This document shows positions 1-27,405 of a stretch of DNA of 32,000 nt, in pieces. The notes under the pieces were generated by a model. It saw only the letters and a program-made list of their open reading frames with translations, did not search any database and was not told the origin of the DNA. Both the position numbers and the translations under genes were made by a program. Source of the stretch: Candidatus Vampirococcus lugosii. GTDB taxonomy: Bacteria; Patescibacteriota; Gracilibacteria; Absconditabacterales; Absconditicoccaceae. Positions within the stretch are counted from its first letter, which is position 1. Each line of letters starts with the position of its first letter. The stretch is from NCBI RefSeq assembly GCF_018420025.1, contig NZ_JAEDAM010000001.1, positions 1-32,000 of the forward strand. The letters run 5' to 3'.

Positions 1-946
1 TTGTATTTATTCTCTCTACCAACTCTACTACATCTATATTTTTTTCTTTTATATAATCCACTATCGCACTCGGTATTCCCGTATCTGACCAGTAAAACTG
101 AAAATTTCTTTTCAAAATTAAATTATTTATATTCCATGGATTAAATATTGTATCTTCCGAATTTCCAAAATTATATCAATTGTAATACAATTTTATTTTA
201 TCTTTTATTTCTTTTTCCTCTTTTCATTCTTGTTCAGCTATTTCTTTTATTTCTTCTTCAAAATTTTTTTCTATATCTTCCCAAGTATATCACATTATAT
301 CATAAACAAAAGGATCATAACTTATATCTTGCAAATTATTCAAACTTGAAAATATATTCATTTTTAATATTTTCGTCAAGCCTGTAAGAAAAAACATTTT
401 TATATATTGATCTGCATCTTTAATTCATGAATAAAAAGCTCCAAAAAATTCTCTATAATATTCTGCTTTTTTTCTATCTTGTAAATGTGTTAATATTACT
501 TTATCATATTCATCTATCAATACTACTACTTGTTTTCCTGTCTTTTCATATATTTCTTTTACCAAATATCATAAATCTATTTCATCTACAAAATCTTCTA
601 TTTTATATATTTTATCTTCTATATATATATTCAAATTATATTTTATAAATTTTTCTACATCTTTAAATTTATTATAACTTGCAAAACTTATATACACTAC
701 TGGATTTGTTTCTTCAAAATTTCGCTTATCATAAATATATGTATTTTTGAATAATTCTTTTTCTCACATATACAAATATTTTATCATTGATAATGTTAAT
801 GATTTCCCAAATCTTCTTGGTCTAGACAAAAAATAATAATTATTACTTATCAACAAATTATATATTATTTTAGTTTTGTCTATATAATAATAATTATCTG
901 TTATTAATTTCTTAAAATCTTGTATTCATATTGCTATTTTTTTCAT
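1..946 (-). CDS. AAA-ATPase-like domain protein (PF09820-type family; partial, 3' end runs off the window)
   Basis: ATG at 946, open with TGA=Gly down to position 1. Translation MKKIAIGIQDFKKLITDNYYYIDKTKIIYNLL..YYFLSRPRRFGKSLTLSMIKYLY.., VVLIDEYDK, YNGYNFG and FNPWNINN match the 'predicted AAA-ATPase' family. That family usually carries a C-terminal PD-(D/E)XK domain, which is not visible here. Confidence 0.75.
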
Positions 947-1019
947 ATCTTTATTTTTTTAATATTACTAAATCTTTTTCATTATATTTTTTTCTTTACC
1001 AAAATCAATATCTTTTCCT

Positions 1020-1029
1020 CGCCCGGGCG
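1020..1029. other. Isolated GC-only perfect palindrome cgcccgggcg in the divergent intergenic region
   Basis: Read directly: cctCGCCCGGGCGgga, embedded in almost pure A/T sequence between the divergently oriented genes ending at 946 and starting at 1120. Function unknown. Confidence 0.3.
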
Positions 1030-1053
1030 GGAATATATTAAAGAAATGTTTAC

Positions 1054-1081
1054 TTGATTTAAACTATATTTTATATATAAT
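1054..1081 (+). promoter_or_regulatory. Candidate sigma70-type promoter for the 1120 operon
   Basis: TTGATT (1054-1059), 16-nt spacer, TATAAT (1076-1081), about 39 nt upstream of the ATG at 1120. This is motif evidence only, and such matches arise easily in AT-rich DNA. Confidence 0.25.
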
Positions 1082-1119
1082 ATGTATTAAATTTTACTTT
1101 TTTATTTTATTTGCAATAA

Positions 1120-2583
1120 ATGAATAATACATTAGATCATTATCCAGAACATTTTAATGAAATTAATTATGACAAACAATTAAATGAACAAATTGTTTCT
1201 ATGCTTATATCAAATTTTGGTGATTGACAGTTTCAATATATTATTGATAAAATTTGAGCAAGTGTAATAGATTTTCATAATATTGATACATATACAAGTG
1301 ATAATATAGCAGAATTTGTAAGATACATTGTTTGAGATGAAAATATAAATGAAAGTGATTGAAATTTTTTTATTAGTAAAGAATGATTTGATATAATATC
1401 TGAATTATTGGAAGATGCATCAAAATATTATAAAAATTTATTTCATAGAGATATACCAAAATCTTTTTGTCCAAATAAATCTTGATATAAATTTAATTGA
1501 TTTGATGATTTTTTTTCTTTTGTAAAATGAAAAACTTCTTCAAATAATTTAAGAAATAATAAATTCAGACAAATTACTTGTAGTTTATTAAAAATTTCTG
1601 TTGTATTGAGTAATATTAGAAAAAGTGGTTTTTTGGAAATGGCAGAAAATGATTATAAACAAATATGTGATGAATATTTTGATGGGAATTGCGATGAATT
1701 TACAAAAATTAAAAAATCTGAAAATGATTATAGAACATTACCAAATAATACTTATGGATTATATCCAGTAGACTTTAATCTTATTTGAAGACCAAAATCT
1801 GAATCAAGTATATTATTAAAAATGTTATCACAATTTGAATATTGAGCAATAGAATCTATAAAAGATTTAGTTTGATTTAAAGCTGAAGTTTCTAATGAAA
1901 AAGAAGCAATTCATCTTATGGAACATATTTATTATCATTTTTTTTCTCAAGACAAACATATTTGAATAATTGCTAAAAATAAATGACTTTTTGATCATAA
2001 ATATTTTTTGGAAAACAAATATTTGTTTTGACAAAAATTTATATCTACTATACAAAGAGATATAGTATGAAAAAAATCTGAAAAAAAACCAAAAACTTGA
2101 GATAATTACAAAGATGTAAAATTTACTTGACCAGTTAAAGTATGAGATAAAACAATAAATTCTGTAGAATTTCAAATAGTTTTGGTAAATAATAACAATG
2201 AATCTTGATATAATGCACATAGTATAATGCATTGAGCAAGAGTTTTGGAATCAATGATTAGATTACAATGATATATTACTATAGCATATATGAAAAGAAT
2301 AATAAAAGAAATTTTGGAAAAAAATGAAGAAATATTACCATGATTAGAAATTGATGTTCGTATAGACAAGATATTTAATGAATTTATGAGAAATCGTTGA
2401 TTTGCATATCTTTATCTTCCTAATTGAAAAAGAAAAAAACAAGAAAAATTTATAGTTTCCAAAAATGATTTTGTTAGATTATCCAAAAATTGATTTATAC
2501 CTCCAGATAGTTTAATAGAAATAAATGATGATAGTTGATACAAAATATATAGTTATGATGATTTAGTTGAAAATAATAATTAA
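1120..2583 (+). CDS. Hypothetical 487-aa protein with a central RelA/SpoT-like (RSH / small alarmone synthetase-like) nucleotide pyrophosphokinase core
   Basis: ATG 1120 to TAA 2581-2583, no in-frame TAA/TAG, many sense TGA. Motif order and spacing resemble RelQ-type synthetases. PVDFNLIGRPKSESSILLKM (from nt 1786) resembles GRVKxxxSILEK. IKDLVGFKAEV (D at 1864) resembles DIAGLRI. NYKDVKF resembles GYRSYH. SVEFQIVL (E at 2167) resembles VEIQIRT, followed by a His about 17 residues later. The N- and C-terminal regions are unrecognised. Confidence 0.5.
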
Positions 2584-2584
2584 A

Positions 2585-4165
2585 ATGAAAAACAATTTAT
2601 CCAAGAAGATTTTAGATTTATCAGATGTAAAAAAAATAAATCCAGATAATGATAAATTAAAAATACTTTCATATTCTATTGCTGAAAAAGCACAAGCAAT
2701 AATTTTTGATGGTGACTCAAAAAAATTACATATACTTACAACTAATAATTATCCATCTATTTTGACACAAATTTTAGATAAAATTGCTGTTAAATGATAT
2801 AAATTTGAATTTTTTTATGTAGATGAAGTGTCTTTTGCTTTTGCTATGAATTGGTATGATAATTTGTATAAAGAAGAAAAAAAAGCAGAAGATTTATTAA
2901 AACAAAGAAAAACAGTTAGATGAAAATATGCGATAGATGTATTAAAAAAATTATATGAAGAAAAATCTAAATATTCTGAACAAGAATTTATTACTGAATT
3001 AATAAGACTTTCTTTTCAATCTAATGCATCAGATCTACATTTTCAACCAGAAGAAAGTGGTATAGTACTTCGTTTAAGAAGGGATTGAATTTTGAAAACT
3101 ATATTAGTTTTTGAATATCAAGAATTCAAAAAATATTTGGTAAAACTTAAATTTATGGCTTGAGTTAGATTAAATATTTCCAAAACTCCTCAAGATTGAA
3201 GGTTTGATTTTGTAAGTTATAATAAAGATGAAACTACAAAAAAAATAGATGTCAGAGTAAGTTTTATGCCTTGACTTAGATGAGAAAGTATTGTTATGAG
3301 ATTTTTGGATTCTACAAATTCTGTATTATGATTTTGAGATATTTGATTTATGTGAGAGACATTAAATGTTCTTAGTAGAAATTTAAAAAAAAAGCACTGA
3401 ATGATATTAGTAACTTGACCTACTTGAAGTGGTAAAACTACAACATTATATTCAATGTTAAACTATTTAAATACTCCCAGTAAAAAAATAATAACTTTGG
3501 AAGATCCAGTAGAATATGAATTACCATGAATTCAACAAAGTCAAATATCTGCAAAAAATTGATATAATTATGAAGATTGACTTAAAGCTGTATTGAGACA
3601 AGATCCAGAAATAATAATGGTTTGAGAAATAAGAAATTTGGAAACGGCAGAAATAGCAATAAATGCAGCACTTACATGACATTTAGTAATATCTACTTTA
3701 CATACAAATAGTGCAATAGAAACAATATCTAGATTATTAAGTATGTGAGTAAAACCTTATATGTTAGCTCCAGCATTAAATTTGGTAATATGACAAAGAT
3801 TATTGAGAAAATTACATACTTGTAAAAATAATAGAAAAGCAAAATTAGCAGAAGAAGAAGATATAAAACAAAATTTAAAATCTATGAAAGATATTAATAA
3901 AAATATAAAAGAAACTTTTGATTGATATGTACCACTACCAAGTGGTTGTGAAAAATGTGGTTCTGATTGATTTATGTGAAGAATAGCAATAGTAGAAACT
4001 TTTGAATTAAATGATAACATAAAAAATACTATATTAAATGATAAACCAGATATATATATGTATTCTGAAGCAAGACAATCATGATTTTTGACTATGAAAG
4101 AAGATGCATATATAAAAATGTTAAATTGACTTACTACTTTGGATGAAATAAGAAGAGTAGTATAA
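2585..4165 (+). CDS. pilB: Type IV pilus / type II secretion family ATPase (PilB/GspE-like)
   Basis: ATG 2585, 1 nt after the upstream stop, to TAA 4163-4165. Motifs include [34 protein letters not shown] and [10 protein letters not shown]. Walker A LVTGPTGSGKTT at 3416-3439 has both leading Gly encoded by TGA. Also present are [39 protein letters not shown] and a Cys cluster GCEKCG. Confidence 0.92.
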
Positions 4166-4285
4166 TTTTTTGAATTACTAAATAAACTATACAAAAAATA
4201 TATTGAAAAATTAAAAAAATATTATATACTAATAAATAATCAAAAAAAATAAAAAAGTATTTTTTAAAAAATAAAATAATAATTA

Positions 4286-5962
4286 ATGAAAAATATATTA
4301 AATTTTATAATTATATTTATGTTTATCACAGTAATTTGAATAATTAGTTTTATTGTTCTTTGATATTTTAAAGAACAAGAATCTATAGATGTAAACAAAC
4401 AAAATTTAAATAATATTAATTTTATTAATTTTTATTTACAAAAAAATTATAATTGAAATTATCCAAAACCATATTGAGATGTTGTATTATTAGATTCAAA
4501 TTTTAATAAAATACATTTGGAAGATTCAACAGTATCTTATGAAAATATTCCTGATTTATATGCTATTCAATGAACTACATGTAGTTTGGGTATAAATGAT
4601 GAAGAATTTAATAAATATAACTATGATATTAGATATTCTGTTTGAGAAAACAAAAGATGTTATTCTTATTCAGTATTAAATGATAATAGCGAATATCAAA
4701 TATGATATATACAAAATATAAATAATCAAAATATATGATATCTTACATGAAGTATAGATATTTCCAAATCTATAACAAAAAGTTATAATTCAAGTAAATT
4801 AGTAAAAAACTCTTCCACACAAACTTTACCATATATGCCATCATTTAATAATAAAATAATATTGGAAAAAATATCATGAAATGCCGATATTGAAGTAATT
4901 GAAACAAGTAAAGATTTAGGTAAAATTGATTTATGAAATTTGAATAATGATATTAATTTAAATGATGATGTTAATATACTTCCTCATTTAGATAATGTTG
5001 AACAAATAGATTTAAGTTTTGAATGAAAAGAATTTGTATACAAAATAATATATCCAAATTGAAATTTACAAATAATTAGTCCAAATAAGAATTCTATTGC
5101 ATCATTATCTATTAAAGATTTTTACTATGATTGAGAAAAATCAAAATTTAAAATATTAGATAATGTTTGAAGAATAGCATATGATTTTGTAAAATTATGA
5201 TGAGATTCTGATTATGAAATTAGTGATTCCAATAGTTGAGTTTTGGTTATAAGATGAACAAAATTTTCTCTTGATTCTGATTCTAAATCAAGTCTAACTC
5301 ATTTATCCAAATGAAGTATTGAATATAATTTAAATTGAAAAAAATATTTAGTAAACTCTCTAGCAAATTTATTCTTTTTTGATCAAAATATGAATTTATT
5401 AAATATAAATGATTTATGAAAAGATTTATCTAATCTTTTATGATATTCAATTGCTGTTTCTTTATTGGATTATGAAATTGACCTAGAATATGTATCTAAT
5501 CATTCTGCTTCACCTGAACTACCTACTATCATCACTGATAATTTAGAATTATCAAAAAATTTTGAATTGAATAATGATTATAATAAATATTGATTTTTTG
5601 TTTTTGATTGAAATTTAACTCAGTCTATTCAAAAAAATCTTGTAATATCTTGAAAATATTTAAATGATGAATTTGACAATATATGTAAATCTAATTGATT
5701 TAATTGACTTGCTAGTATAGATGATGCAAAAAATATATTAGATACTAAAGTTTTTTCTGATGATAAAATAACTTTTGAAATAAAAGAAATATTGAGTGAT
5801 AAAATAAATAAAAATTATGATATAATATTTAATAAAGTTTGAAATAGTCCATCAAATACAAAAATAACTTATTTTAATAGTAGAACTTGATTTATTGATA
5901 ATACTAATTATATAGATTCATCTTGAACTTGAAGAGATTGATCCGTTGTTTTTTGTAAGTAA
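4286..5962 (+). CDS. Membrane-anchored 558-aa hypothetical protein with a pilin-like N-terminal architecture
   Basis: ATG 4286 to TAA 5960-5962, checked codon by codon. N-terminal hydrophobic helix MKNILNFIIIFMFITVIGIISFIVLGYF. It is followed by NLNNINFINFYLQKNYNGNYPKP, which resembles the post-helix DLxxIxxALxxYxxDNGxYP segment of pilin/pseudopilin proteins. There is no canonical G/FTLxE prepilin site. The rest is N/S/D-rich and unrecognised. Confidence 0.45.
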
Positions 5963-6181
5963 ATATAAAAATATTTTTTATAACTTATATAATTTTTTAC
6001 AATATTATTAATATAGTAAAATAAATAACATATAAAAATTTTTAAATTTGATAAATAGCACTTTGGAAAAATATAAACAATCTTAAAAAATAAATTCTTC
6101 TTATTTTTTATTAAATAAATATTGACTTTAAGAATAATATTTATATATATAAACAATATTTTATATATAATAAAAAAGAAT

Positions 6182-7834
6182 ATGTTACAAATTACACACC
6201 AAATTGAAGATGAAAAAATAGAAGAAATTATACAAATAGAAGAATTATCAAAAGAAATTTATATGTTATTGAAATGAGATATTGAAAATATTGAATTAAA
6301 TCCAAATGCTGAATCTGAATTCAAAAAAGAATTAAAAGAAAAATTTGAAGAAAAAATTATATGACAAGAAAAAGCAAAAAAAGCTTTGATAGAAGCTGTA
6401 TTTAATAATATTGCACCTATTAGAAGTAAAAAATGACCATTATGAGTTTTCTTTTTTGCTTGACCTTCTTGAGTTGGTAAAACACAAATTACAAAAGTAT
6501 TAGCTGATATTTTGTTATGATCAGAAGATTATATAACTAAAATAGATTGTGCAGAATTTTCCGAAGATCATACTGCTAGGAATTTATTTTGAGCACCAAA
6601 AAGTTATGTTTGATATTGAGAACCTACCCCACTAAATGATATAAATTTATTTAAATCATATCAAGAATCAAAAAAAAGAAATTTAATTCATAGACAAATC
6701 TCAAGATTAAATAGTTTTTCAATATTATTGTTTGATGAAATAGAAAAAGCACATCCAAATATTCATCAATCATTATTATGAGCAATGGCAGATGGTAAAA
6801 TAAGATTTCCTAGTTGAAAAGAAAGTGATAACAAACTTAAATACAGTCAAGAAACTGATCTATCAAATACAATAATAATATTTACATCAAATGTTTGAAA
6901 TAGAGAAGCAATCAAAAAATCTATCGGTTTTGTGCAAGAAAAAAATGATGAATGACAAAAAGCAGATTATAAAAACAGTTTTAATAAAGTTTTTTCACCA
7001 GAATTTATCGGTAGAGTTGATGAATTTATTACTTTTGAAAATTTGAATAAAGAAGATTTATTTGAAATTTTGAAAAAAGAAGTACTAGATATATCACGAC
7101 ATTTTTGAGTTCTTGAATGAAATTTTAAATTAAATATTAGTGATGAAGTTTTAAAAAAAATTGTTGATAGATCTTTTTCAAAAAAATATTGAGCTAGACC
7201 TGTTATTAATGATTTTACTAAAACTGTTGAAGCAGATATAAATAATATTATAAATTCTTGACAATTAGAAAGTTTGTTTGATATTAAATCATTTTCTTTT
7301 GTAATAAATGTTGATTTAGATCATAATTGAAATTTTAAATATACTTTATCAAAATATAATGAAATATCAGAAGAAAATGATATAAAAAATTCTTTGGATA
7401 AACTTAAAAAATATATAGAATACTCTTTCAAAGAAGATATTGATATTGATGATAAAATTAATAAAATTGAAGAAAAATTATTATCAAAATTTGATAAAAA
7501 AGAAATATCTATAATTAGAAATAAAATTTATTCAAATATGATTCTTGATTTTGATATGATACATGAATTTGATGATTATGAATGAATAAGTATATCAAAT
7601 AAAGAAGAAAAAAATTTATTATGAAAATTTTGACGAAGAAATACAAAAACAATTGTAGATAGAAAATTAGAAATTTATAAATGAAAATTTAATTATAATA
7701 ACGATAAATTTATAGAATATATTTGAGAAATTTTTGTTATGGTAGAAGAGTTAAATGGCGAAGTACTTAACCAAAAACAAATAAAAGAAATAATGAAAAT
7801 GATTGATGCATACAAAAAATCAAGAAAAAAATAA
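6182..7834 (+). CDS. Single-domain Clp/Hsp100 D2-like AAA+ ATPase with an unrecognised C-terminal extension of about 170 aa
   Basis: ATG 6182 to TAA 7832-7834. Motifs include IIGQEKAKKALIEAV and KSYVGYGE. Walker A FFFAGPSGVGKT has TGA Gly codons at 6461 and 6470. Walker B is LLFDEIEKAHPNIHQSLLGAMADGKI. FSPEFIGRVDEFITFENL and YGARPV are also present. Only one AAA+ module is present, and I saw no N-domain, D1 module or ClpP-docking loop. Confidence 0.75.
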
Positions 7835-7875
7835 ATATAAATTTAATAATAAATTACTAAAAATTATTTTTTAAG

Positions 7876-8553
7876 ATGAAAAAAATAAATCCTCAAATAG
7901 ATATATCTTGGAAAAAATTATTAATGAATGAATTTGAAAAAGAATATTTTTTGAATTTAAAAGATTTTTTGTTGCAAGAAAAAAGCAAATATGAAATATA
8001 TCCTCATTCTTCAAAAATTTTTTCTGCTTTTAATAATTGTAGTTTTGATAAAGTAAAAATTGTTATAATATGACAAGATCCATATCATTGAGTTTGACAA
8101 GCAAATTGAATGTGTTTTTCTGTAAATAAATGAATATCATTACCACCTTCATTAAAAAATATTTTTAAAGAAATAAATAATGATCTACAAGTCCAAATGT
8201 GAGACAATGGAGATCTAACAAATTGGGCAAAACAATGAGTTTTATTATTAAATTCAATTCTTACCGTAAGAAAATGACAAGCATCTTCTCACAAAAATAA
8301 ATGATGGGAAAAATTTATTGATGAAGTAATAAATATTATATCAGATAAAAAAAATTGAATAATATTTTTGTTATGGGGAAATTTTGCACAAGAAAAAGAA
8401 AAATTGATTGATAAAGAAAAACATTATATACTTAAATCAGCTCATCCTAGTCCTTTTTCTGCACACAAATGATTTTTTGGAAATAAACATTTTTCAAAAG
8501 CAAATGAAATATTACAAAAACAATGAAAAGAAATAATAAACTGGAAAATTTAA
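7876..8553 (+). CDS. ung: Uracil-DNA glycosylase (family 1)
   Basis: ATG 7876 to TAA 8551-8553. Motifs [38 protein letters not shown] and SAHPSPFSA. Confidence 0.93.
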
Positions 8554-8576: not shown

Positions 8577-9170
8577 ATGGATAAAAAAATATTTGAATGA
8601 CTAAATTTATGAATAAATGAAATAAATTGAGTATGAGTTGTTGTAAAAAATTCTTCAAATGAAATATTAACAGTGTTTGAAAACAATCCAAATGAATCCA
8701 CTTGGAAAAAACAATGACAAGAATCAATAGTATTTGGAAAAATAAATAAATGAGAACAATCAATAGATACTGCTCAAAGAGAAATTTATGAAGAAACTTG
8801 ATTGGAAATTCCAAAACAAAATTTTGATTTTACAGGAAAAGTAAATATATATTATTCAAAATCACATTGAGTAGAAAAAATAAATCTAGATATTTTTGAA
8901 ACAAATTTTGAATGAAATTTATCAAATATTACTAATAATGAAATTATATCATCAAGATTTGTAAATATTCAATCTCTAATAGAAAAATGGAAAAATGATA
9001 AAAGTTCTATAAGACCTATAACTTTTGAAGCAATATTTACAAATATTGTAAGTTGAACACAAAATTTTGCCGCTAAAACAATACAAAATTGAGAATATAA
9101 TAAAGAATATATAAAAGAATTAAATAAAATAATAAAAAATATTGAAAAAATTTTAAAAACTAAAAAATAA
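8577..9170 (+). CDS. Nudix hydrolase
   Basis: ATG 8577 to TAA 9168-9170. Nudix box GKINKGEQSIDTAQREIYEETGLEI fits GX5EX7REUXEEXGU. Confidence 0.8.
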
Positions 9171-9172
9171 TT

Positions 9173-9814
9173 ATGATAGTTTTGAAATTATGATGATCAG
9201 TTTTTGCTGACAAAAATAAAAAAGAATTTATAGATTTTAATCATTTAAAAAAATTTAAAAATATTATTGAAAATATAAATAAAAAAATAATTCTTGTCCA
9301 TGGTACTGGTAATTGGGGACATTGATTTGTAAAAAATAATTGATTAAATATAAATAATTATAAAAAACTTGAAAATAAGTTAAAGATTTTTTTTAAAAAA
9401 ATAGATAATATATTTAATAATTTTGAAAGATTATATTTTGATAGTATAGAAAAAATAAATCTAATACAAAATAATATTATTATATGATGATATATTAATA
9501 AAACGGAAATAATTAGTTCCGATAGAATAATTAGCGATATTATAAAAAATGAAAAAATTGAAAAATCTTTTATATTATCTGATATAGATTGAGTATTGGA
9601 TACTAATGGTAAAATTATAGAATTTATAAACAAAAAAAATATAAAAAATATATCTTTTTGGGATAATGAAAATGATGCAACATGAAGTATGAAACAAAAA
9701 GTTTTGAACTTATTAAATACTTGATACAAAAGCTATATTCTAAATTGAAAAAATTTAGAAAATTTTGAAAACATATTAAATGGGAAAAAATGAATAAAAA
9801 CCCAAATAAATTAA
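9173..9814 (+). CDS. Isopentenyl phosphate kinase-like (amino acid kinase family)
   Basis: ATG 9173, 2 nt after the Nudix stop, to TAA 9812-9814. MIVLKLGGSV, ILVHGTGNWGHGF, ISSDRI, LSDIDGVLD and NDATGSMKQKV are collinear with archaeal IPK motifs (ILKLGGS, LVHGGGAFGH, ISGDDI, TDVDGVL, DVTGGM). Confidence 0.7.
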
Positions 9815-10239
9815 TTTTGTGATTTATATGCCATAAAAAAATATATAATAAATAAATTAATTATTAGCAATAATAATCATATAAATAAAAATAATAAACC
9901 TAAATATTTATCACCAAAATTATTCATAATAACATTATCTGGTTGATTCGGATTACAATATAATTCAACAGTTTCATTTATATTAATTTTTTTTCAAGTT
10001 GTTCAAATTTTTGTAGTATAATTTAATTTTTTTCAAGAACATTCATATTGTATTGAAGGATAAAAACATTCTTTTCAATCAATATAACCAATTTCAAATC
10101 AAATAATCTTTCATTCAATAAGAACTTTATCTTTACTGAAAAACATTTTTATTGCAGGATAACCAAAAATAACTCCAAACATAATAAAAACTATACTCAT
10201 AAAAAACAAAGTAAATATTAACATTTTATTATTACTCAT
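9811..10239 (-). CDS. DUF3592-like two-TM membrane protein
   Basis: ATG at 10239, stop TAA at 9813-9811, which overlaps the convergent IPK stop within ttaa. An N-terminal TM is followed by a beta-rich segment (IEGKIIGFEIGYIDGKECFYPSIQYECSGKK...ETVELYCNPNQPDNV) and a C-terminal TM. Confidence 0.55.
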
Positions 10240-10264
10240 TTCTTACAGATTTTCTATTAAAAAA

Positions 10265-10696
10265 CTAAAATAAAACAAATATAACAAAGATACTAAATAT
10301 AGCAATTAATATACCAAATAACACTTCCAAAGCTGAATGTCATATCAAATGATTTCGTTCTATTTTTTTATTTTCAACAATATCTTGAATAATAATATTA
10401 ATTATATTTTGCTGTTGTGTAGCAAATACTTTATCTCATATTACATCCCTTACAACAATACTTGCAAATACAAATGTTATAATAGAAACTGTATTTACTC
10501 ATTCTACGATAAAAACTCATATACTAAGTGAAACTACAGTTGATGTATGAGAACTTGGCATTCAAGCACCTCTAAATAAAGAACTTCGTTCAAATCTTTT
10601 AGTTTGCAAAACATCAAGCAAGGTTTTTATCAATTGTGCTAATACTGTAGAAAATACTGTTGCAATAAATATTTTATTATAAAATAATTCTAACAT
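10265..10696 (-). CDS. Divergent PAP2 family membrane protein (DUF212 / acid phosphatase-vanadium haloperoxidase related)
   Basis: ATG at 10696 to TAG 10267-10265. Has the RGAGMPSSHTSTVVSL motif (family signature GGMPSSHSA) and a GHSALEV motif, and is multi-TM. Confidence 0.7.
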
Positions 10697-10767
10697 TTTT
10701 GATACTAAAACATATAAAAATTAAATAAAAAATATAATTTTATCAAAATACATTACCCTACTGTAAT

Positions 10768-11610
10768 TTAATTATTATACAATTCTAATATATTTTCAAA
10801 TAAACAAGCAATAGTTGTAGGTCATACTCATCAAGGAACTGGACTAATAGCTTTTACTTTATCTTTTACATCTTCAAAATTTATATCTCACATAATTTTA
10901 TTTCATTTTTTGGAAAATCATACATCTATTAATATTTGTGATTTATCATTTTTTACAAAATTTGAATTTATCAATCAAGCAACTCAAGTTGCACATATTA
11001 TATAATCAGATTGTTTACAAAAATATGCTAAATCTCTGGGGTCTATTTTTTTATTAAAAGAAAAAACTTCTGCTTCTTTTTTCATAAATTCTAATGCAAG
11101 AGGTTTACCAATCAAATTACTTTGTCATATTATAGAAATTTTTTTTCATTCAAAATCATCAAGTTTATAATATTTTAATATATTAATTATAGATTTTGGT
11201 GTAGCAGGTAAGAAATTAGTTTTTCAAACTAAATTAAGTCAAAAATTAATTCATCATAATCAGTCAATATCTTTTTTGCTAGATATTGATGAAAGTATAT
11301 CAGCTTTGTAATGCTCTATAATATTATTTAATGGTAATTGAACTATTATTCAAACACAATTATTATCATTATTTAATTGATATATCAATGACAGTATTTC
11401 ATCTATATTTTCACAATTTATATTTTCTTTTGAAAATATTTTCACACATATTCAAACATCATCTCAAAAATTTTTTTTATGATTTACATATGTTTGACTA
11501 GCTAAATCATCAGATAATAATAATATTCAAATATATATATTTTTTCATAAATTTGATTTAATAATTTTTTCTTTTATCAAATCAGATACTGGTTTTCAAT
11601 ACAAAATCAT
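10768..11610 (-). CDS. folD: Bifunctional methylenetetrahydrofolate dehydrogenase/cyclohydrolase
   Basis: ATG at 11610 to TAA 10770-10768. Motifs LSDDLASQTYVNHKKN, GIIVQLPL, KDIDGL, PATPKSII, IIGQSNLIGKPLA and ISPVPGGVGPTTIA. Confidence 0.92.
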
Positions 11611-11639
11611 AATTTAATAATATATTACATATAAAATAT

Positions 11640-12404
11640 TTAATCTCATTCTATTTCTTTTATTTGATCTCTAATAATAGCAGCAGATTCAAAATCCCGA
11701 TTTGCAATAGCTTGATCAAGTTGAGATTTTAAATCTTTTAATATTATATCTTTTTCTTTTTTGGTCATTCTTTTTAATTTTTTCATCTTGGATTTGGCTC
11801 ATATAGGAATATTTTGCAATTCATCATCACTTTTTACTACATTCAAATCTTTAATATTTGAAATAGCTTTCTGTGGAGTTATTCAATGTTTGAGATTATA
11901 TTCTTGTTGTATTTGTCTTCTACGATAAGTTTCATAAAGTGATTTAGTTATAGAAGCTGTAAATTGTTCTGCATATAAACATACTTCAGAATTAGGATTT
12001 CTAGCTGCTCTTCAAATAATTTGTATCAAAGAAGTAGTAGATCTCAAAAATCATTCTTTATCAGCATCCAAAATTCATATAAAACTAACTTCAGGTAAAT
12101 CTATTCATTCTCTCAAAAGATTAATTCAAATTAAGATATCTATTTGTCATGTTTTAAGTTTTTTTATAATATCCCAACGATCAATAGTATCTATTTCGCT
12201 ATGAAGATAATAAGTTTTATATCATTTGGAAACAAAAAAATTTGTAATTTCTTCAGCTGATCTTTTGGTCAGAGTTAATATTAATACTCTACCATCTTTT
12301 GATATATGATAATCTATTTTGGAAAAAAGATGATCAATAAATTCAGGTTGCTTTTGTGCATTTTGAATATTTGAAACTTGTAAGAAATCTTTAAGATTTT
12401 CCAT
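11640..12404 (-). CDS. uvrB: UvrB C-terminal half only (helicase domain 3 plus UVR domain), as a stand-alone 254-aa ORF
   Basis: ATG at 12404 to TAA 11642-11640. Motifs [77 protein letters not shown] and the UVR-like tail [24 protein letters not shown]. An in-frame stop lies upstream at 12432-12434. The upstream neighbour, 11 nt away, is an unrelated HAD gene. No Walker A or beta-hairpin half is present in this window. Confidence 0.8.
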
Positions 12405-12415
12405 AAACAAAATTT

Positions 12416-13009
12416 TTAAATTAATTTTAAATTAAAATCATTCCAAGAATTTAAACGATGTATTTTTTTAATATTAATTTTTTCATTAATATTCCAATTT
12501 TTTGTTAATAAAAAAATTTTGATATTTGCATTTTCAACAATTTCTTTAGCATATTCAAAATTATCTTCAAACATAAAATCAGTTCATATTCTTTTACAAA
12601 CTTCAGATTTAGGTTTTGAATTTTTAGTAAAATGATTTGTAAAATGTACATCATCTATTAATCAAGGAAAATTTTTTTCTATCCATTTGTAAGTAGAATT
12701 TTTTAAACTTTCTTGTCTAGCTGTAATAACATGTAATTTATAATTATTATTTTTTAAATAAACAAGTTTTTCATAAGATCAATCTACAGGTTTAATATTA
12801 TAAGAATTTTCATGTTGCAAAAAATTATGAAAAAAATCAACAATTTCTTGATTTAAATCTTTAAATTTTTCCATATCAGATATTTTATAAGATGTAATTT
12901 CTTCTTTGTAAAGAGTTCTTCAAGCAATTTTGAATCAATTATGTTCCAATGCAGATTGTACAGTTTCAGCCAAAACTTCATCCATATCTATTCAAACTAT
13001 TTTTTTCAT
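12416..13009 (-). CDS. HAD-superfamily 5'(3')-deoxyribonucleotidase-like protein
   Basis: ATG at 13009 to TAA 12418-12416. N-terminal MKKIVGIDMDEVLAE carries the DxDxV HAD motif in the NT5C-like context. Size (197 aa) and the later ITAR and FEDN segments fit. Confidence 0.65.
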
Positions 13010-18056: not shown

Positions 18057-19751
18057 TTATTTTTCCAAATTTCGTTTATTTCTATCTGGATTATAATCTT
18101 GTTTTACTTGTTCTCAATTGTTTATTAATTTTATTAACTTATCTATAGTCTTAATTTCTTTTTCAAAAACTTTCTTATCATCTCATTGAAATATTTCTTC
18201 TTTTAACTTTAATTTTTCTTTTATATTTTCCAATATAGAAATATCTCTTTCTTGAATAGATTCTTTTAATGCATCAGTATATTTTACTAGATTTACTCAT
18301 TTTATCATACTTGTATTAGCTGGTTTATTATCAATTTTTATTTCTTGAGATGTTTCCACTTCTTTACCAGTATATTCTTTATAACTTACTTGTATATTAA
18401 TATTTTCTTGTATTTGTTCTTTTAATTTCAAAAGAATTATAGATCATCTATGTCATTCAGTTTTGGGAGGAGTAGGAAATAATGTATTAATAGACATTAA
18501 TTCATTTTTATGATTATCTAATCAATAAACTTTTTCAATATTATCTTCATTATCTATATTCATTTTCAAATTAAATATCATAGGAAAAAAGTTATAATCA
18601 AATTCATCTACAATTCTCTGAGAAAATTCCCAAGCATCAGATATATAAAAATAATTATTTCATTCAAATTTTCATATTTTTTGTACAAATTGTTGTTGAA
18701 AATCTACTGCTACTCAAAAGAAAGAAAAATAAATATTATCTTCAGATGCATCTTTTACCATATTAGCTAATCATCAAGCTGAATAATCTCACATATTTGG
18801 CATAGCATCAGTAATAAAAAGAACTCTATTTTGATATCAACTTTTCATATCATCATCAAATAAAGATAATCATTTTTTCATTCATGATTCCATATTAGTA
18901 CCACCTCAATCTCTTACACTTTTTAAATGTTTTTTCAAAGAAGATTTATCTATATTTTCTACTTTTATAAGTTCATGAGCAATATATGCAGAATCATCAT
19001 ATAAAACAATTCATATTCTATCATCTTCTCTTAATTTGTCCAACATTTTTGACATAGCCTGCATAGCAAATTCCATTCTAGATTGTTTACTAATCTCAGT
19101 ATAATCATCTATAAATATTTGTTTATCTTCTTGAGAAATACATTTTTTTCATGGTGCAAAATATAATTCATTTTGAGTATCACATAAATCACTTTCATAA
19201 ATATAATCTTGAGTATTTTCATAATAATATTGTGATAAAGCTCATCACATACTTCAACTTTTATCTATTACCAAAACAAAATTAGTAGGAGGTCTTTGAA
19301 AATCTTCATCTTTTATATTAGATCATAAAGATATTTGTATCCAGTTTTCATTGTCTACTTGTCAATAATCAACTAAAGGACAAAACATTGTTTCACATTC
19401 TCAACTTGGCTGTTGAAAATGATAATCAGAAAATATACCATTATAAGTTATAGTTTCAAGACTTGGTATATGTCATTTTTCAATATTATCTCTAAAAAGC
19501 ATCATATCTTGATCAGCTCATACTTGAAATCAAATATTTTCTTGTAATGTATTAGTATCATATAAAGCTCATGGTGAACTAGGATTAATTCAAGAATTAT
19601 TACTAAATCATTGTCTATTATAAGTAGATTTAGAAACTTCTTCTTGATATTTCCAATGATCACTTTTTTCAGTAATACTAATTTTATCAATACATCAAGT
19701 CATAAAAATAAATGATAATATTATTGTAAACCATAAAATTGTTTTTGTCAT
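18057..19751 (-). CDS. Lipoprotein with a von Willebrand factor type A (VWA) domain (YfbK/BatA-like)
   Basis: ATG at 19751 to TAA 18059-18057, checked codon by codon. The signal peptide ends in the lipobox FMTGC, whose Gly is TGA. The N-terminal segment is IPSLETITYNGIFSDYHFQQP. MIDAS motif VLVIDKSGSMGG, plus GGTN and VLFITDAMPN. The tail is coiled-coil-like. Confidence 0.8.
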
Positions 19752-25437: not shown

Positions 25438-25458
25438 CAATTTAAAATAAAAGCGAAA

Positions 25459-25543
25459 TACCGGGAACCGGACTTGAACCGGTACTCTAAAATTTAGAAG
25501 CGGATTTTAAGTCCACCGCGTCTACCAATTCCGCCATCCCGGC
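25459..25543 (-). tRNA. tRNA-Leu (anticodon UAA), type II with long variable arm
   Basis: Hand fold: GCCGGGA / TGGCGGAATTGGTAGACGC / GTGGA-CTTAAAA-TCCGC / variable arm / ACCGG-TTCAAGT-CCGGT / TCCCGGT-A. Discriminator A73, G1:U72 wobble, no encoded CCA. Confidence 0.9.
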
Positions 25544-25563
25544 AAAAAGAACAAAATCCCAAA

Positions 25564-25911
25564 TTATTTAGAGATTTCTTCATTTATTTTATCAAAAACT
25601 TCAGGAAAAACAACTGCAATATTAGATAAAACTTTTCTATTCATAACCACATTATTAGTTTTCAACTGATTAATAAAGACACTATATTTAGAACCTCTAG
25701 ATCTAAGAGCTGAAGAAAGCCTATCTATCCATAATTGTCTAAACTGTCTTTTTTTCAATTTCCTTCATATATAAGCATTTTGTCATTGTTTTATTAAAGC
25801 CAACCTAACTTGTTTATAAACATTTTTTCTTCAAAGTCTAAATCATTTAGCTTGTTTCAAAAACTTTTTATGCCTTCTATGTCTAACAAATCAATTAGTA
25901 ACTCTTACCAT
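25564..25911 (-). CDS. rplT: 50S ribosomal protein L20
   Basis: ATG at 25911 to TAA 25566-25564. MVRVTNGFVRHRRHKKFLKQAKGFRLGRKNVY...RQLWIDRLSSALR...VMNRKVLSNIAV. Confidence 0.94.
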
Positions 25912-25915
25912 ACTA

Positions 25916-26113
25916 TTATAATTTATAAGGAATTAAATTTCTAACTTTCTTTTCTTCTTTATGAGATAATACTCTACCATAAGGATCCTTTTTAGGTGAA
26001 GAACCTTTATTTGTAAGCAAATGACTAACTCAAGCCTTTTTATGAATAAGTTTACCAGATTTAGTAACTTTAATTCTCTTAGCCATTGATTTATTAGTTT
26101 TAACTTTATACAT
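25916..26113 (-). CDS. rpmI: 50S ribosomal protein L35
   Basis: ATG at 26113 to TAA 25918-25916. MYKVKTNKSMAKRIKVTKSGKLIHKKAGVSHLLTNK. Confidence 0.88.
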
Positions 26114-26114
26114 T

Positions 26115-26660
26115 TTACTTAACTTTAGCAAATAAAATCATACTATATCCTCTTTTTTCTTTTTTAATTCATTGTCATTTACTTATATCAATAAGCAATG
26201 ACATTATATACTCTAATCTAGAATATAATTTATCTGCATAAATATTTTCTCTTCATTTAAGCTGACCAAGAAATTTTACAGTATGTCAAGACTCCAAAAA
26301 CTTTTTTGCTTGAGATATTTTCATTTCCAAATCATTATCTCAAATATTATAAGAAAACTTTATCTCTTTCATACATTTAGATTTTTGAGACTTCTTTTTT
26401 TCTCAATCTTCTTTCTTTTTTGAATACAAATATTTTCAAATTTCCATTATTTTAGCAGTAACAATTTTATCTTTTGGATCAAATCAAACCTGAATCAAAT
26501 CTTTCATCTCTTCTTCTGCCTTCAATAAAGCATCTCTTTTTGAAAAAATTCAAAGATTAACTCATTCCTCATCTATTAATAAAATTTTATCTCACCTAAT
26601 ATACTCATTAGTATACAATTTTTTATCATAATTTTTACTATTAGAAGAGCCAAAACCCAT
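26115..26660 (-). CDS. infC: Translation initiation factor IF-3
   Basis: ATG at 26660 to TAA 26117-26115, 1 nt before the rpmI start. Motifs IRGDKILLIDEEGVNLGI, EEEMKDLIQV, KEIKFSYNIGDNDLEMK and GHTVKF. Classic infC-rpmI-rplT order. Confidence 0.88.
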
Positions 26661-26693
26661 ACAAAAAATTTAAATTATAAATCGCCAAGACCA

Positions 26694-26768
26694 CATCCCT
26701 GGCGGGATTTGAACCCGCGATCTCTGGCATGAGAGGCCAACATCCTAAACCAACTAGACGACAGGGAC
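26694..26768 (-). tRNA. tRNA-Glu (anticodon CUC)
   Basis: GTCCCTG TC GTCTAGTTGGTTTAGGAT G TTGGC-CTCTCAT-GCCAG AGATC GCGGG-TTCAAAT-CCCGC CAGGGAT G. The Glu-type GTCCC...TCGTCTAG pattern is present. G1:U72 wobble, no CCA. Confidence 0.85.
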
Positions 26769-26776
26769 AAATAAAC

Positions 26777-26850
26777 TACACTTGGAAGGAATCGAACCTT
26801 CAACCTACGGCTTAGAAGGCCGTCGCTCTATCCGATTGAGCTACAAGTGC
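26777..26850 (-). tRNA. tRNA-Arg (anticodon UCU)
   Basis: GCACTTG TA GCTC AATCGGATA GAGC G ACGGC-CTTCTAA-GCCGT AGGTT GAAGG-TTCGATT-CCTTC CAAGTGT A. G1:U72 wobble, no CCA. Confidence 0.88.
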
Positions 26851-26872
26851 AAAACAAAAAATTAAAATAAAT

Positions 26873-26946
26873 TGGAGTCGAGGGGACTCGAACCCCTGAC
26901 CCCCTGCGTGCAAAGCAGATGCTCTAGCCAACTGAGCTACGACCCC
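26873..26946 (-). tRNA. tRNA-Ala (anticodon UGC)
   Basis: GGGGTCG TA GCTC AGTTGGCTA GAGC A TCTGC-TTTGCAC-GCAGG GGGTC AGGGG-TTCGAGT-CCCCT CGACTCC A. The G3:U70 alanine identity pair is present. No CCA. Confidence 0.92.
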
Positions 26947-26960
26947 AATAAATTTTAGAA

Positions 26961-27043
26961 TGGGCAGAGTAGGATTCGAACCTACGTAGCCGTGAGGCGG
27001 CGGATTTACAGTCCGCTGCATTTAACCACTCTGCCATCTGCCC
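26961..27043 (-). tRNA. tRNA-Tyr (anticodon GUA), type II
   Basis: GGGCAGA TG GCAGAGTGGTTAAATGC A GCGGA-CTGTAAA-TCCGC long variable arm GTAGG-TTCGAAT-CCTAC TCTGCCC A. No CCA. Confidence 0.9.
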
Positions 27044-27055
27044 AAATTTAAAAAA

Positions 27056-27331: not shown

Positions 27332-27405
27332 AGCGGGCAACGGGACTTGAACCCGTACAGGCAGAGCTGAATTCTGCCATGCTACACCAATTACATCATG
27401 CCCGC
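27332..27405 (-). tRNA. tRNA-Gly with anticodon UCA (decodes UGA)
   Basis: Hand fold (74 nt): GCGGGCA TG ATGT AATTGGTGTA GCAT G GCAGA-ATTCAGC-TCTGC CTGT ACGGG-TTCAAGT-CCCGT TGCCCGC T. The anticodon loop has U33, T34 C35 A36 and G37. The acceptor stem G1:C72, C2:G71, G3:C70 and discriminator U73 are bacterial tRNA-Gly identity elements (compare E. coli GCGGGAA...TTCCCGC-U). No CCA. Confidence 0.88.

Follow-up and report, generated by a model that had tools for sequence, protein, structure and literature searches.

Is a gene that lies one nucleotide upstream of a pilus motor gene tied to that motor, or is it simply a neighbour? The question is raised by the start of contig NZ_JAEDAM010000001.1 (assembly GCF_018420025.1) of the epibiotic predator Candidatus Vampirococcus lugosii, which belongs to the candidate phyla radiation (CPR) phylum Absconditabacteria (PMC8080830). 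The window analysed here is the forward-strand stretch of 32,000 nucleotides (nt), 32 kb, that begins at position 1 of this contig. Near its start an unannotated gene, g1, is followed by g2, which encodes a PilB/GspE-family ATPase and is called pilB below. An earlier note on this DNA had described a module of three genes: a RelA/SpoT homologue (RSH)-like enzyme, an orphan PilB motor and a giant pilin-like protein of 558 amino acids (aa), the product of g3. We find that the conserved unit comprises two genes and that g3 lies outside it. Our reading, held with moderate confidence, is that g1 and pilB form a clade-specific operon that pairs a novel RSH-fold enzyme with an ordinary PilB and is selected for co-expression. 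The most solid novelty is the g1 family itself, which is unannotated and for which modelling confidently predicts an RSH fold, with an intact ATP site and an altered acceptor site.

The g1–pilB unit and its genetic code

The features of the unit, and the transfer RNA on which its translation depends, are as follows.

1120–2583, + strand: g1, 487 aa in genetic code 25, member of an unannotated family; helical N-terminal region, RSH-type core and small C-terminal α/β domain
1762–2319, + strand: RelA/SpoT-synthetase-like catalytic core of g1, approximately residues 215–400
2585–4165, + strand: g2, PilB/GspE-family hexameric assembly ATPase, 526 aa
2581–2587, + strand: junction TAA-A-ATG, with the g1 stop codon at 2581–2583, a 1-nt spacer and the pilB start at 2585
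947–1119, no strand: intergenic region from which g0 (− strand) and g1 diverge, tentatively the promoter region of the g1–pilB unit
1054–1081, + strand: TTGATT-16-TATAAT match
4166–4285, no strand: AT-rich spacer of 120 nt after pilB, with a tentative promoter-like match at 4203–4230
27332–27405, − strand: tRNA with anticodon UCA, called as tRNA-SeC by ARAGORN

Translation with table 11 breaks the region into fragments and short open reading frames (ORFs). With UGA read as sense, the window holds 59 ORFs of 100 aa or more, among them those at 1120–2583, 2585–4165 and 4286–5962, all on the + strand, just as first described. The products of g1 and g2 match V. lugosii proteins at 100% identity. 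TGA codons occupy the Walker A glycines (GPTGSGKT) of g2 and of its orthologues, and the UCA tRNA is the UGA-reading tRNA behind code 25 here. Code 25 (UGA=Gly) was assigned because of these two observations. Five more tRNA genes are clustered nearby, at 25458–27044.

Positions 1120–4165 form a two-gene, same-strand unit that is most likely one operon. The 1-nt junction between the g1 stop at 2583 and the pilB start at 2585 was borne out. Because the gap is a single nucleotide, co-transcription of the pair in V. lugosii is near certain, probably from the 947–1119 region, and translational coupling, in this species alone, is plausible. The promoter and terminator assignments are tentative because the promoter scan is uninformative in DNA of 20% GC, where the matches were not above chance (57 found against 63 expected). 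No terminator-like hairpin was found in the 4166–4285 spacer, and Rfam returned no riboswitch or other RNA family over positions 1–8000.

Predicted fold and active site of g1

The core of g1 is predicted to have the RelA/SpoT (RSH) synthetase fold. An alignment-based AlphaFold (AF2) model of the protein has a predicted local distance difference test score (pLDDT) of 88 and a predicted template-modelling score (pTM) of 0.90; the single-sequence model (pLDDT 34) was unusable. When the former was compared with the PDB by Foldseek, the top ~49 matches were all RSH enzymes (Rel, RelP, RelQ, SpoT, RelA, CapRel and Tas1), with a best E of 5.8e-4 for Rel and a probability of up to 1.0 for RelP. RelQ and RelP, the long RSH enzymes (Rel, RelA and SpoT) and the family PF04607 are the best and almost the only structural matches of g1. 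The top matches in the viral structure library BFVD are likewise RelA/SpoT proteins.

Sequence comparisons point the same way with far less force. As a single sequence, g1 had no meaningful match in the PDB. A profile of the g1 family matched RelA/GTP pyrophosphokinase entries only, weakly (E ~0.5), and these matches sit on the Syn1/Syn2 motif R-x-K...S...K...D-x-x-G-x-R. Alignment of the family with RelQ by hhalign, for which the RelQ sequence was validated against 5DED, places R224...G252 of g1 on R46...G75 of RelQ, a match that is suggestive at most (E=0.078, probability <1%). No curated family threshold in Pfam or NCBIfam is reached by g1. For the Pfam family PF04607 (RelA_SpoT), g1 reaches 15.6 bits (E=0.02), short of the gathering cutoff of 27, and 13 of 60 g1 relatives have sub-threshold matches, the best at E=3.9e-4. 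Hence the label 'RSH-like' stands as regards the fold and the ATP/Mg2+ motifs, and falls short at the Pfam cutoff.

How large is this family? A word-indexed homologue search returned g1 alone with g1 as the query, and g1 and P0061 only with the family alignment. It missed the relatives because AT-rich sequence saturates the word filter; a full HMMER search of 1.8 billion representatives was therefore run and recovered 86 relatives of ~450–520 aa, so that the family comprises ~87 clusters including g1. Residue conservation was counted over 60 aligned members, which share ~20% identity. Tryptophan stands at conserved glycine columns in at least 41 of these 60. This is UGA read under table 4, and the family therefore belongs mainly to UGA-recoded CPR lineages. 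Public protein sets translate the close relatives of g1 by table 4, and so carry Trp in place of the true Gly. UniRef names g1 'Restriction endonuclease' and NCBI lists it as hypothetical; the UniRef name was rejected, since neither fold nor motifs fit it. A related-locus search with a 4-sequence alignment gave 2 genome loci, 1 metagenome locus and 0 viral loci, and thus no relatives of the family in viral data.

The residues that would handle ATP and metal are strikingly constant. K226, K234, D249 and E350 occur in 60/60 members and R224 in 59/60. S230 is found in 41/60, Q352 in 35/60, G252 in 50/60 (with W counted as Gly, given the UGA/table 4 artefact), and an R or K at position 254 in 34/60. 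The invariant or near-invariant set comprises R224, K226, K234, D249, K334, E350, N358, N360 and R381, with S230, G252, Q352 and H367 well conserved; N360 is invariant across the family. The motifs associated with ATP binding (R-x-K-x3-S-x3-K), Mg2+ (D-x-x-G-x-R) and catalysis (E-x-Q) are thus all present. RelQ and Rel share with g1 R-x-K-x3-S-x3-K, D-x-x-G-x-[RK] and the catalytic E-x-Q. Purifying selection on an active site typically leaves this kind of invariance in the ATP and metal residues.

The guanine-acceptor motifs, in contrast, have given way to others: g1 has Y330-x-D332-x-K334 where alarmone synthetases have Y-x-x-x-H, and E-F-Q-I-V-L where they have E-x-Q-x-R-T, the family consensus at this second motif being E-[IFV]-Q-I-V-L with V-L in place of R-T. 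These motifs were equated with those of RelQ by motif order, as the hhalign alignment covers Syn1/Syn2 only. Because the ATP/Mg2+ residues are kept and the guanine-acceptor motifs replaced, we propose a non-guanine acceptor: most likely, g1 takes a pyrophosphate or nucleotidyl group from ATP and passes it to a molecule that is neither GDP nor GTP. There is precedent among the toxic small alarmone synthetases (toxSAS) and related effectors, RSH-fold enzymes that can use acceptors such as tRNA 3' ends or ATP/ADP. Judged by its motifs, g1 is probably an active, divergent RSH-fold transferase that would fall outside every described RSH subfamily.

Its architecture is also its own. Compared with RelQ, RelP and Rel, g1 (487 aa) has an unrelated helical N-terminus of ~200 aa without an HD motif, a C-terminal domain of ~85 aa, altered acceptor motifs and the family-specific invariants N358, N360 and R381. 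Both terminal domains are unclassified. An HD hydrolase was considered for the N-terminal region and rejected, there being no HD motif and no Pfam match. The sole curated family with detectable similarity to the N-terminal region and the start of the core is TIGR04552/TIGR04562, known from Myxococcales and Bdellovibrio. The similarity spans residues 46–270 of g1 (E=5e-4), at 19.4 bits (TIGR04562) against an NCBIfam cutoff of 140, and recurs below threshold in 15–16 of 60 relatives (best E=2.7e-12). On these scores g1 is a distant relative of TIGR04552/TIGR04562 and not a member. Those families are uncharacterised, and the g1 family differs from them in belonging mostly to UGA-recoded CPR bacteria. 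In Myxococcus xanthus, one member is encoded at the end of the G1 cluster for gliding motility, and its fitness pattern is glt-like (preprint 10.64898/2026.08.28.747804).

Conservation of the pair

The partner of g1 is a conventional motor. g2 is a full-length GspE/PilB-family ATPase that matches PF00437 (T2SSE) at E=2e-106, and Walker A (278–285), the Asp box (302–310), Walker B (340–350) and the His box (364–373) are intact. Like PilB and GspE, it has a complete T2SSE core with the four nucleotide-binding boxes, and it scores equally on the two models: 406 bits on TIGR02538 (PilB; cutoff 676) and 405.5 bits on TIGR02533 (GspE; cutoff 630). It differs from known members in lying below both equivalog cutoffs and in having 3 rather than 4 Cys at the tetracysteine zinc site. 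For the N-terminal domain the evidence is divided: full-length PilB/GspE models align with g2 from residue 12 or 27, so that the N-terminus is colinear, but residues 1–135 alone have no T2SSE_N (PF05157)/MshEN match.

No PilC, PilM/N/O, PilT, PilD or pilin gene was found in the window, as had been noted. This was the ground for calling the motor an orphan, but solitude proves to be no property of this locus. Across the window and ~8 kb around PilB in nine orthologue loci, PilB is solitary, with no type IV pilus (T4P) neighbours and amid housekeeping genes, at 10/10 loci; a solitary PilB is hence the norm of the lineage. A rich T4P gene set is reported from elsewhere in the V. lugosii genome (PMC8080830). 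g2 is the ordinary PilB orthologue of the lineage, probably serving a dispersed T4P system, which comes close to a case that the earlier note had itself named as refuting its reading.

What sets the locus apart is the neighbour. The order g1 then pilB is kept in 4/4 genomes of the V. lugosii subclade: the window, the GTDB genomes L001 and L002, and the Logan contig L005. Among these four, PilB is 67–74% identical and g1 30–42% identical. The adjacency is found again in three further, divergent genomes whose flanks have been reshuffled, and so withstands the first refuting case that the earlier note had named, but the junction is not kept: the spacer is 1 nt in the window, 25 in L001, 18 in L002 and 20 in L005. 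The pair is flanked by g0, an AAA-ATPase_like gene, and g3 in the window, by YkuD and Lgt in L002, and by an ORF of 113 aa and NusA in L001; L005 has the same 113-aa ORF and a different downstream gene. No two of the four genomes have the same downstream flank. The linkage of g1 and pilB is clade-specific, and the 1-nt junction species-specific.

The upstream ORF shared by L001 (9459–9800, − strand) and L005 (6873–7217, − strand) encodes a basic protein of 113–114 aa that lies divergently, just upstream of the g1 homologue. Its two copies are 82% identical, where the g1 homologues are 30% identical; it has no Pfam match and is absent from the window.

One further locus may extend the pattern. 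In L008, whose PilB is 62% identical to g2, an ORF of 488 aa (6526–7992, + strand) lies 8 nt upstream of PilB, in the place of g1 and of its size. It contains R-x-K-x3-S-x2-K-K ... D-D-I-L-A-I-Q and N-H-E-I-Y-K stretches colinear with the g1 motifs, but has no significant similarity to g1 (negative with the g1-family hidden Markov model; hhalign probability 2%). Either a g1 orthologue that has diverged very far or a replacement of g1 would account for it.

These observations can be assembled into an account of a selected operon. Genes g1 and pilB, normally solitary and unlinked in Absconditabacteria and Gracilibacteria, would have come together a single time, in the common ancestor of the V. 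lugosii subclade, and the pair would have outlived rearrangements that replaced both flanks. As the pair is intact despite this replacement, selection for co-expression is suggested, within one subclade. In g1, the ATP-phosphate residues R224-x-K226...S230...K234 and the metal and catalytic acids D249 and E350 would serve an ATP-dependent transfer. The g2 ATPase would polymerise type IV pilins together with platform and alignment proteins whose genes lie elsewhere in the genome. In this subclade g1 may work in the cell-surface, attachment or DNA-uptake programme of the pilus, but it is not an obligatory partner of PilB. Functional coupling of g1 and PilB is plausible, and a direct regulatory link from the g1 product to PilB is possible.

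Several observations weigh against this account. The Foldseek template-modelling (TM) scores are low (target-normalised 0.39–0.41 for RelP/RelQ), and the membership of g1 among RSH enzymes lies below every curated sequence threshold. There are just four pair-bearing genomes, and they represent three independent flank contexts, not four, because L001 and L005 share upstream synteny; with three contexts, the statistical support for selection on adjacency is modest. Moreover, no g1 lies within ~8 kb of the PilB orthologues of L009, L010 (SR1 RAAC1), L011 (Gracilibacteria), L013 and L014, which are 49–63% identical to g2, and no PilB lies near the g1-family genes of L003, L004, L006, L007 and L012. 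Outside the subclade, the g1-family protein and PilB clearly function apart. In L013, a gene directly after PilB (8921–12580, + strand) encodes a GyrA/ParC-type topoisomerase subunit that bears an intein with a LAGLIDADG homing-endonuclease domain.

A functional coupling would connect an RSH-fold enzyme with a type IV pilus motor for the first time, and would provide a handle on pilus control in attachment and DNA uptake by genome-reduced predatory or episymbiotic CPR bacteria. Irrespective of coupling, the unannotated g1 family, with its ~87 clusters, widens RelA/SpoT-like sequence space and merits a curated model.

Rival readings and the neighbouring genes

The strongest competitor of the selected operon is neutral inheritance: a chance rearrangement in the subclade ancestor placed two functionally unrelated genes side by side, and they have yet to be separated. 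We think this rather unlikely, though a serious contender. Same-strand neighbours in compact CPR genomes would on this premise be co-transcribed anyway, and in every more distant relative sampled the two genes stand alone, unlinked to each other. The variation of the spacer from 1 to 25 nt fits such drift, as does the much faster evolution of g1 than of PilB, which gives no sign of co-evolution, and the contexts number three. What speaks for selection instead is that both flanks have been replaced (window, L002 and L001/L005) and the pair is intact in all four genomes, the pattern of a selected operon. Were the pairing just inherited synteny, the locus would be an ordinary one, the solitary pilB of a dispersed T4P system beside lineage-specific genes.

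The selected operon can also be extended into a more ambitious and, in our view, unlikely proposal. The g1 family and its TIGR04552 relatives may constitute an unrecognised RSH branch that serves surface-motility or pilus machines and has become hard-wired to PilB in the V. lugosii subclade. Its product might be a non-guanine nucleotide signal, or its action the direct pyrophosphorylation or nucleotidylation of a pilus component, gating pilus extension in a predatory CPR bacterium as it attaches to prey or takes up DNA.

Less probable still is a dedicated device in which a nucleotide messenger from the RSH-like enzyme gates an orphan motor, with the 558-aa protein as fibre or substrate. Nucleotide control of PilB/MshE-type ATPases by cyclic di-GMP is established, the predicted RSH fold of g1 comes with intact catalytic residues and the pair is conserved in four genomes; that the searchable literature holds no RSH-type or alarmone-synthetase partner of PilB also counts on this side. 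Yet g1 does not keep the motifs by which alarmone synthetases hold the guanine acceptor, the N-terminus of PilB has no recognisable nucleotide-sensor domain, and no riboswitch was found in the region with Rfam. PilB is, besides, an ordinary solitary orthologue with T4P genes reported elsewhere in the genome, and g3 has no prepilin motif, homologue or conserved position. The genes around the unit are the following.

4286–5962, + strand: g3, 558 aa, Asn/Ser-rich, with a single N-terminal transmembrane helix
1–946, − strand: g0, PF09820 'Predicted AAA-ATPase' (E=3e-51), truncated at the window start and oriented away from g1
6182–7834, + strand: g4, 550 aa, single-module AAA+ protein resembling the D2 half of ClpB/ClpA (AAA_2 + ClpB_D2-small)

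Of the giant pilin-like protein, the transmembrane helix is what is left. The N-terminus of g3, MKNILNFIIIFMFITVIGIISFIVLGYFKEQ, has its first Gly at position 18, inside the helix, and its first Glu at position 30; a class III signal peptide (prepilin motif G|F-x-x-x-E: Gly at −1 after a short basic leader, and Glu at +5 in the hydrophobic helix) is not present. A regular-expression search for the prepilin motif found nothing in the window or in L001–L011. Pfam and NCBIfam hold no pilin or other family match for g3, and none of the related loci contains a homologue, its position not being conserved. A pilin was therefore rejected on motif, family and homology alike; g3 is a lineage-specific surface protein, with an Asn/Ser-rich ectodomain, outside the conserved unit. 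The 120-nt AT-rich spacer sets it off from pilB.

That g1 is a toxSAS-type toxin or another anti-phage enzyme of the CapRel, FaRel or Tas1 kind, in a block that forms a defence island, is very improbable. The toxSAS enzymes (CapRel, FaRel2 and Tas1) share the RSH fold with g1, CapRel and Tas1 are among its structural matches, and phage RelA/SpoT proteins are among those in BFVD. The neighbours g0 (AAA-ATPase_like) and g4 (ClpB-D2-like) are non-housekeeping, and g4 has PADLOC matches to two candidate-defence models, PDC-M37B (2e-21) and DolB (4e-18), probably through generic AAA+ similarity. However, PADLOC gave no CapRel, toxSAS or other defence-system match for g1 itself, whose sole, marginal match is to PDLC02975 (WH_III-A, winged-helix; E=0.0016, 16.8 bits). 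Unlike toxSAS genes, g1 has no antitoxin-like or immunity partner beside it, small or otherwise, its conserved partner being PilB; nor does it have a mobile or viral context or viral relatives. It is 487 aa long with extra domains, and its unlinked relatives sit singly amid housekeeping or envelope genes. The related loci have no counterparts of g0 or g4, and base composition (GC) is uniform over the window. The suggestion of a toxSAS or defence gene was rejected on the PADLOC, antitoxin and viral results, and g0, g3 and g4 are unrelated neighbours of the g1–pilB unit. g4 carries a C-terminal tail of ~190 aa without a known domain.

Equally improbable is that g1 is a pseudo-enzyme, an RSH-fold scaffold without catalytic activity whose role is structural or regulatory, for although the acceptor-site motifs are unlike those of all characterised RSH enzymes and turnover is fast (30–42% identity in the subclade), R224, K226, K234, D249 and E350 are held constant over 60 members at ~20% identity.

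The remaining genes of the window are housekeeping: UDG, NUDIX, FolD, LysRS, a Na/H exchanger, a 5'-3' exonuclease, ADK, RpoA, ribosomal proteins and IF3. Two other ORFs deserve mention. An ORF of 254 aa (11640–12404, − strand) encodes the C-terminal part of UvrB alone (Helicase_C, UvrB and UVR domains); the N-terminal uvrB half is not adjacent, and the gene may be truncated or split. Amid the housekeeping genes lies a VWA-domain protein of 564 aa (18057–19751, − strand) with a lipoprotein-like N-terminal signal (…FMTGC), a possible surface adhesin of the kind stressed in the genome paper.

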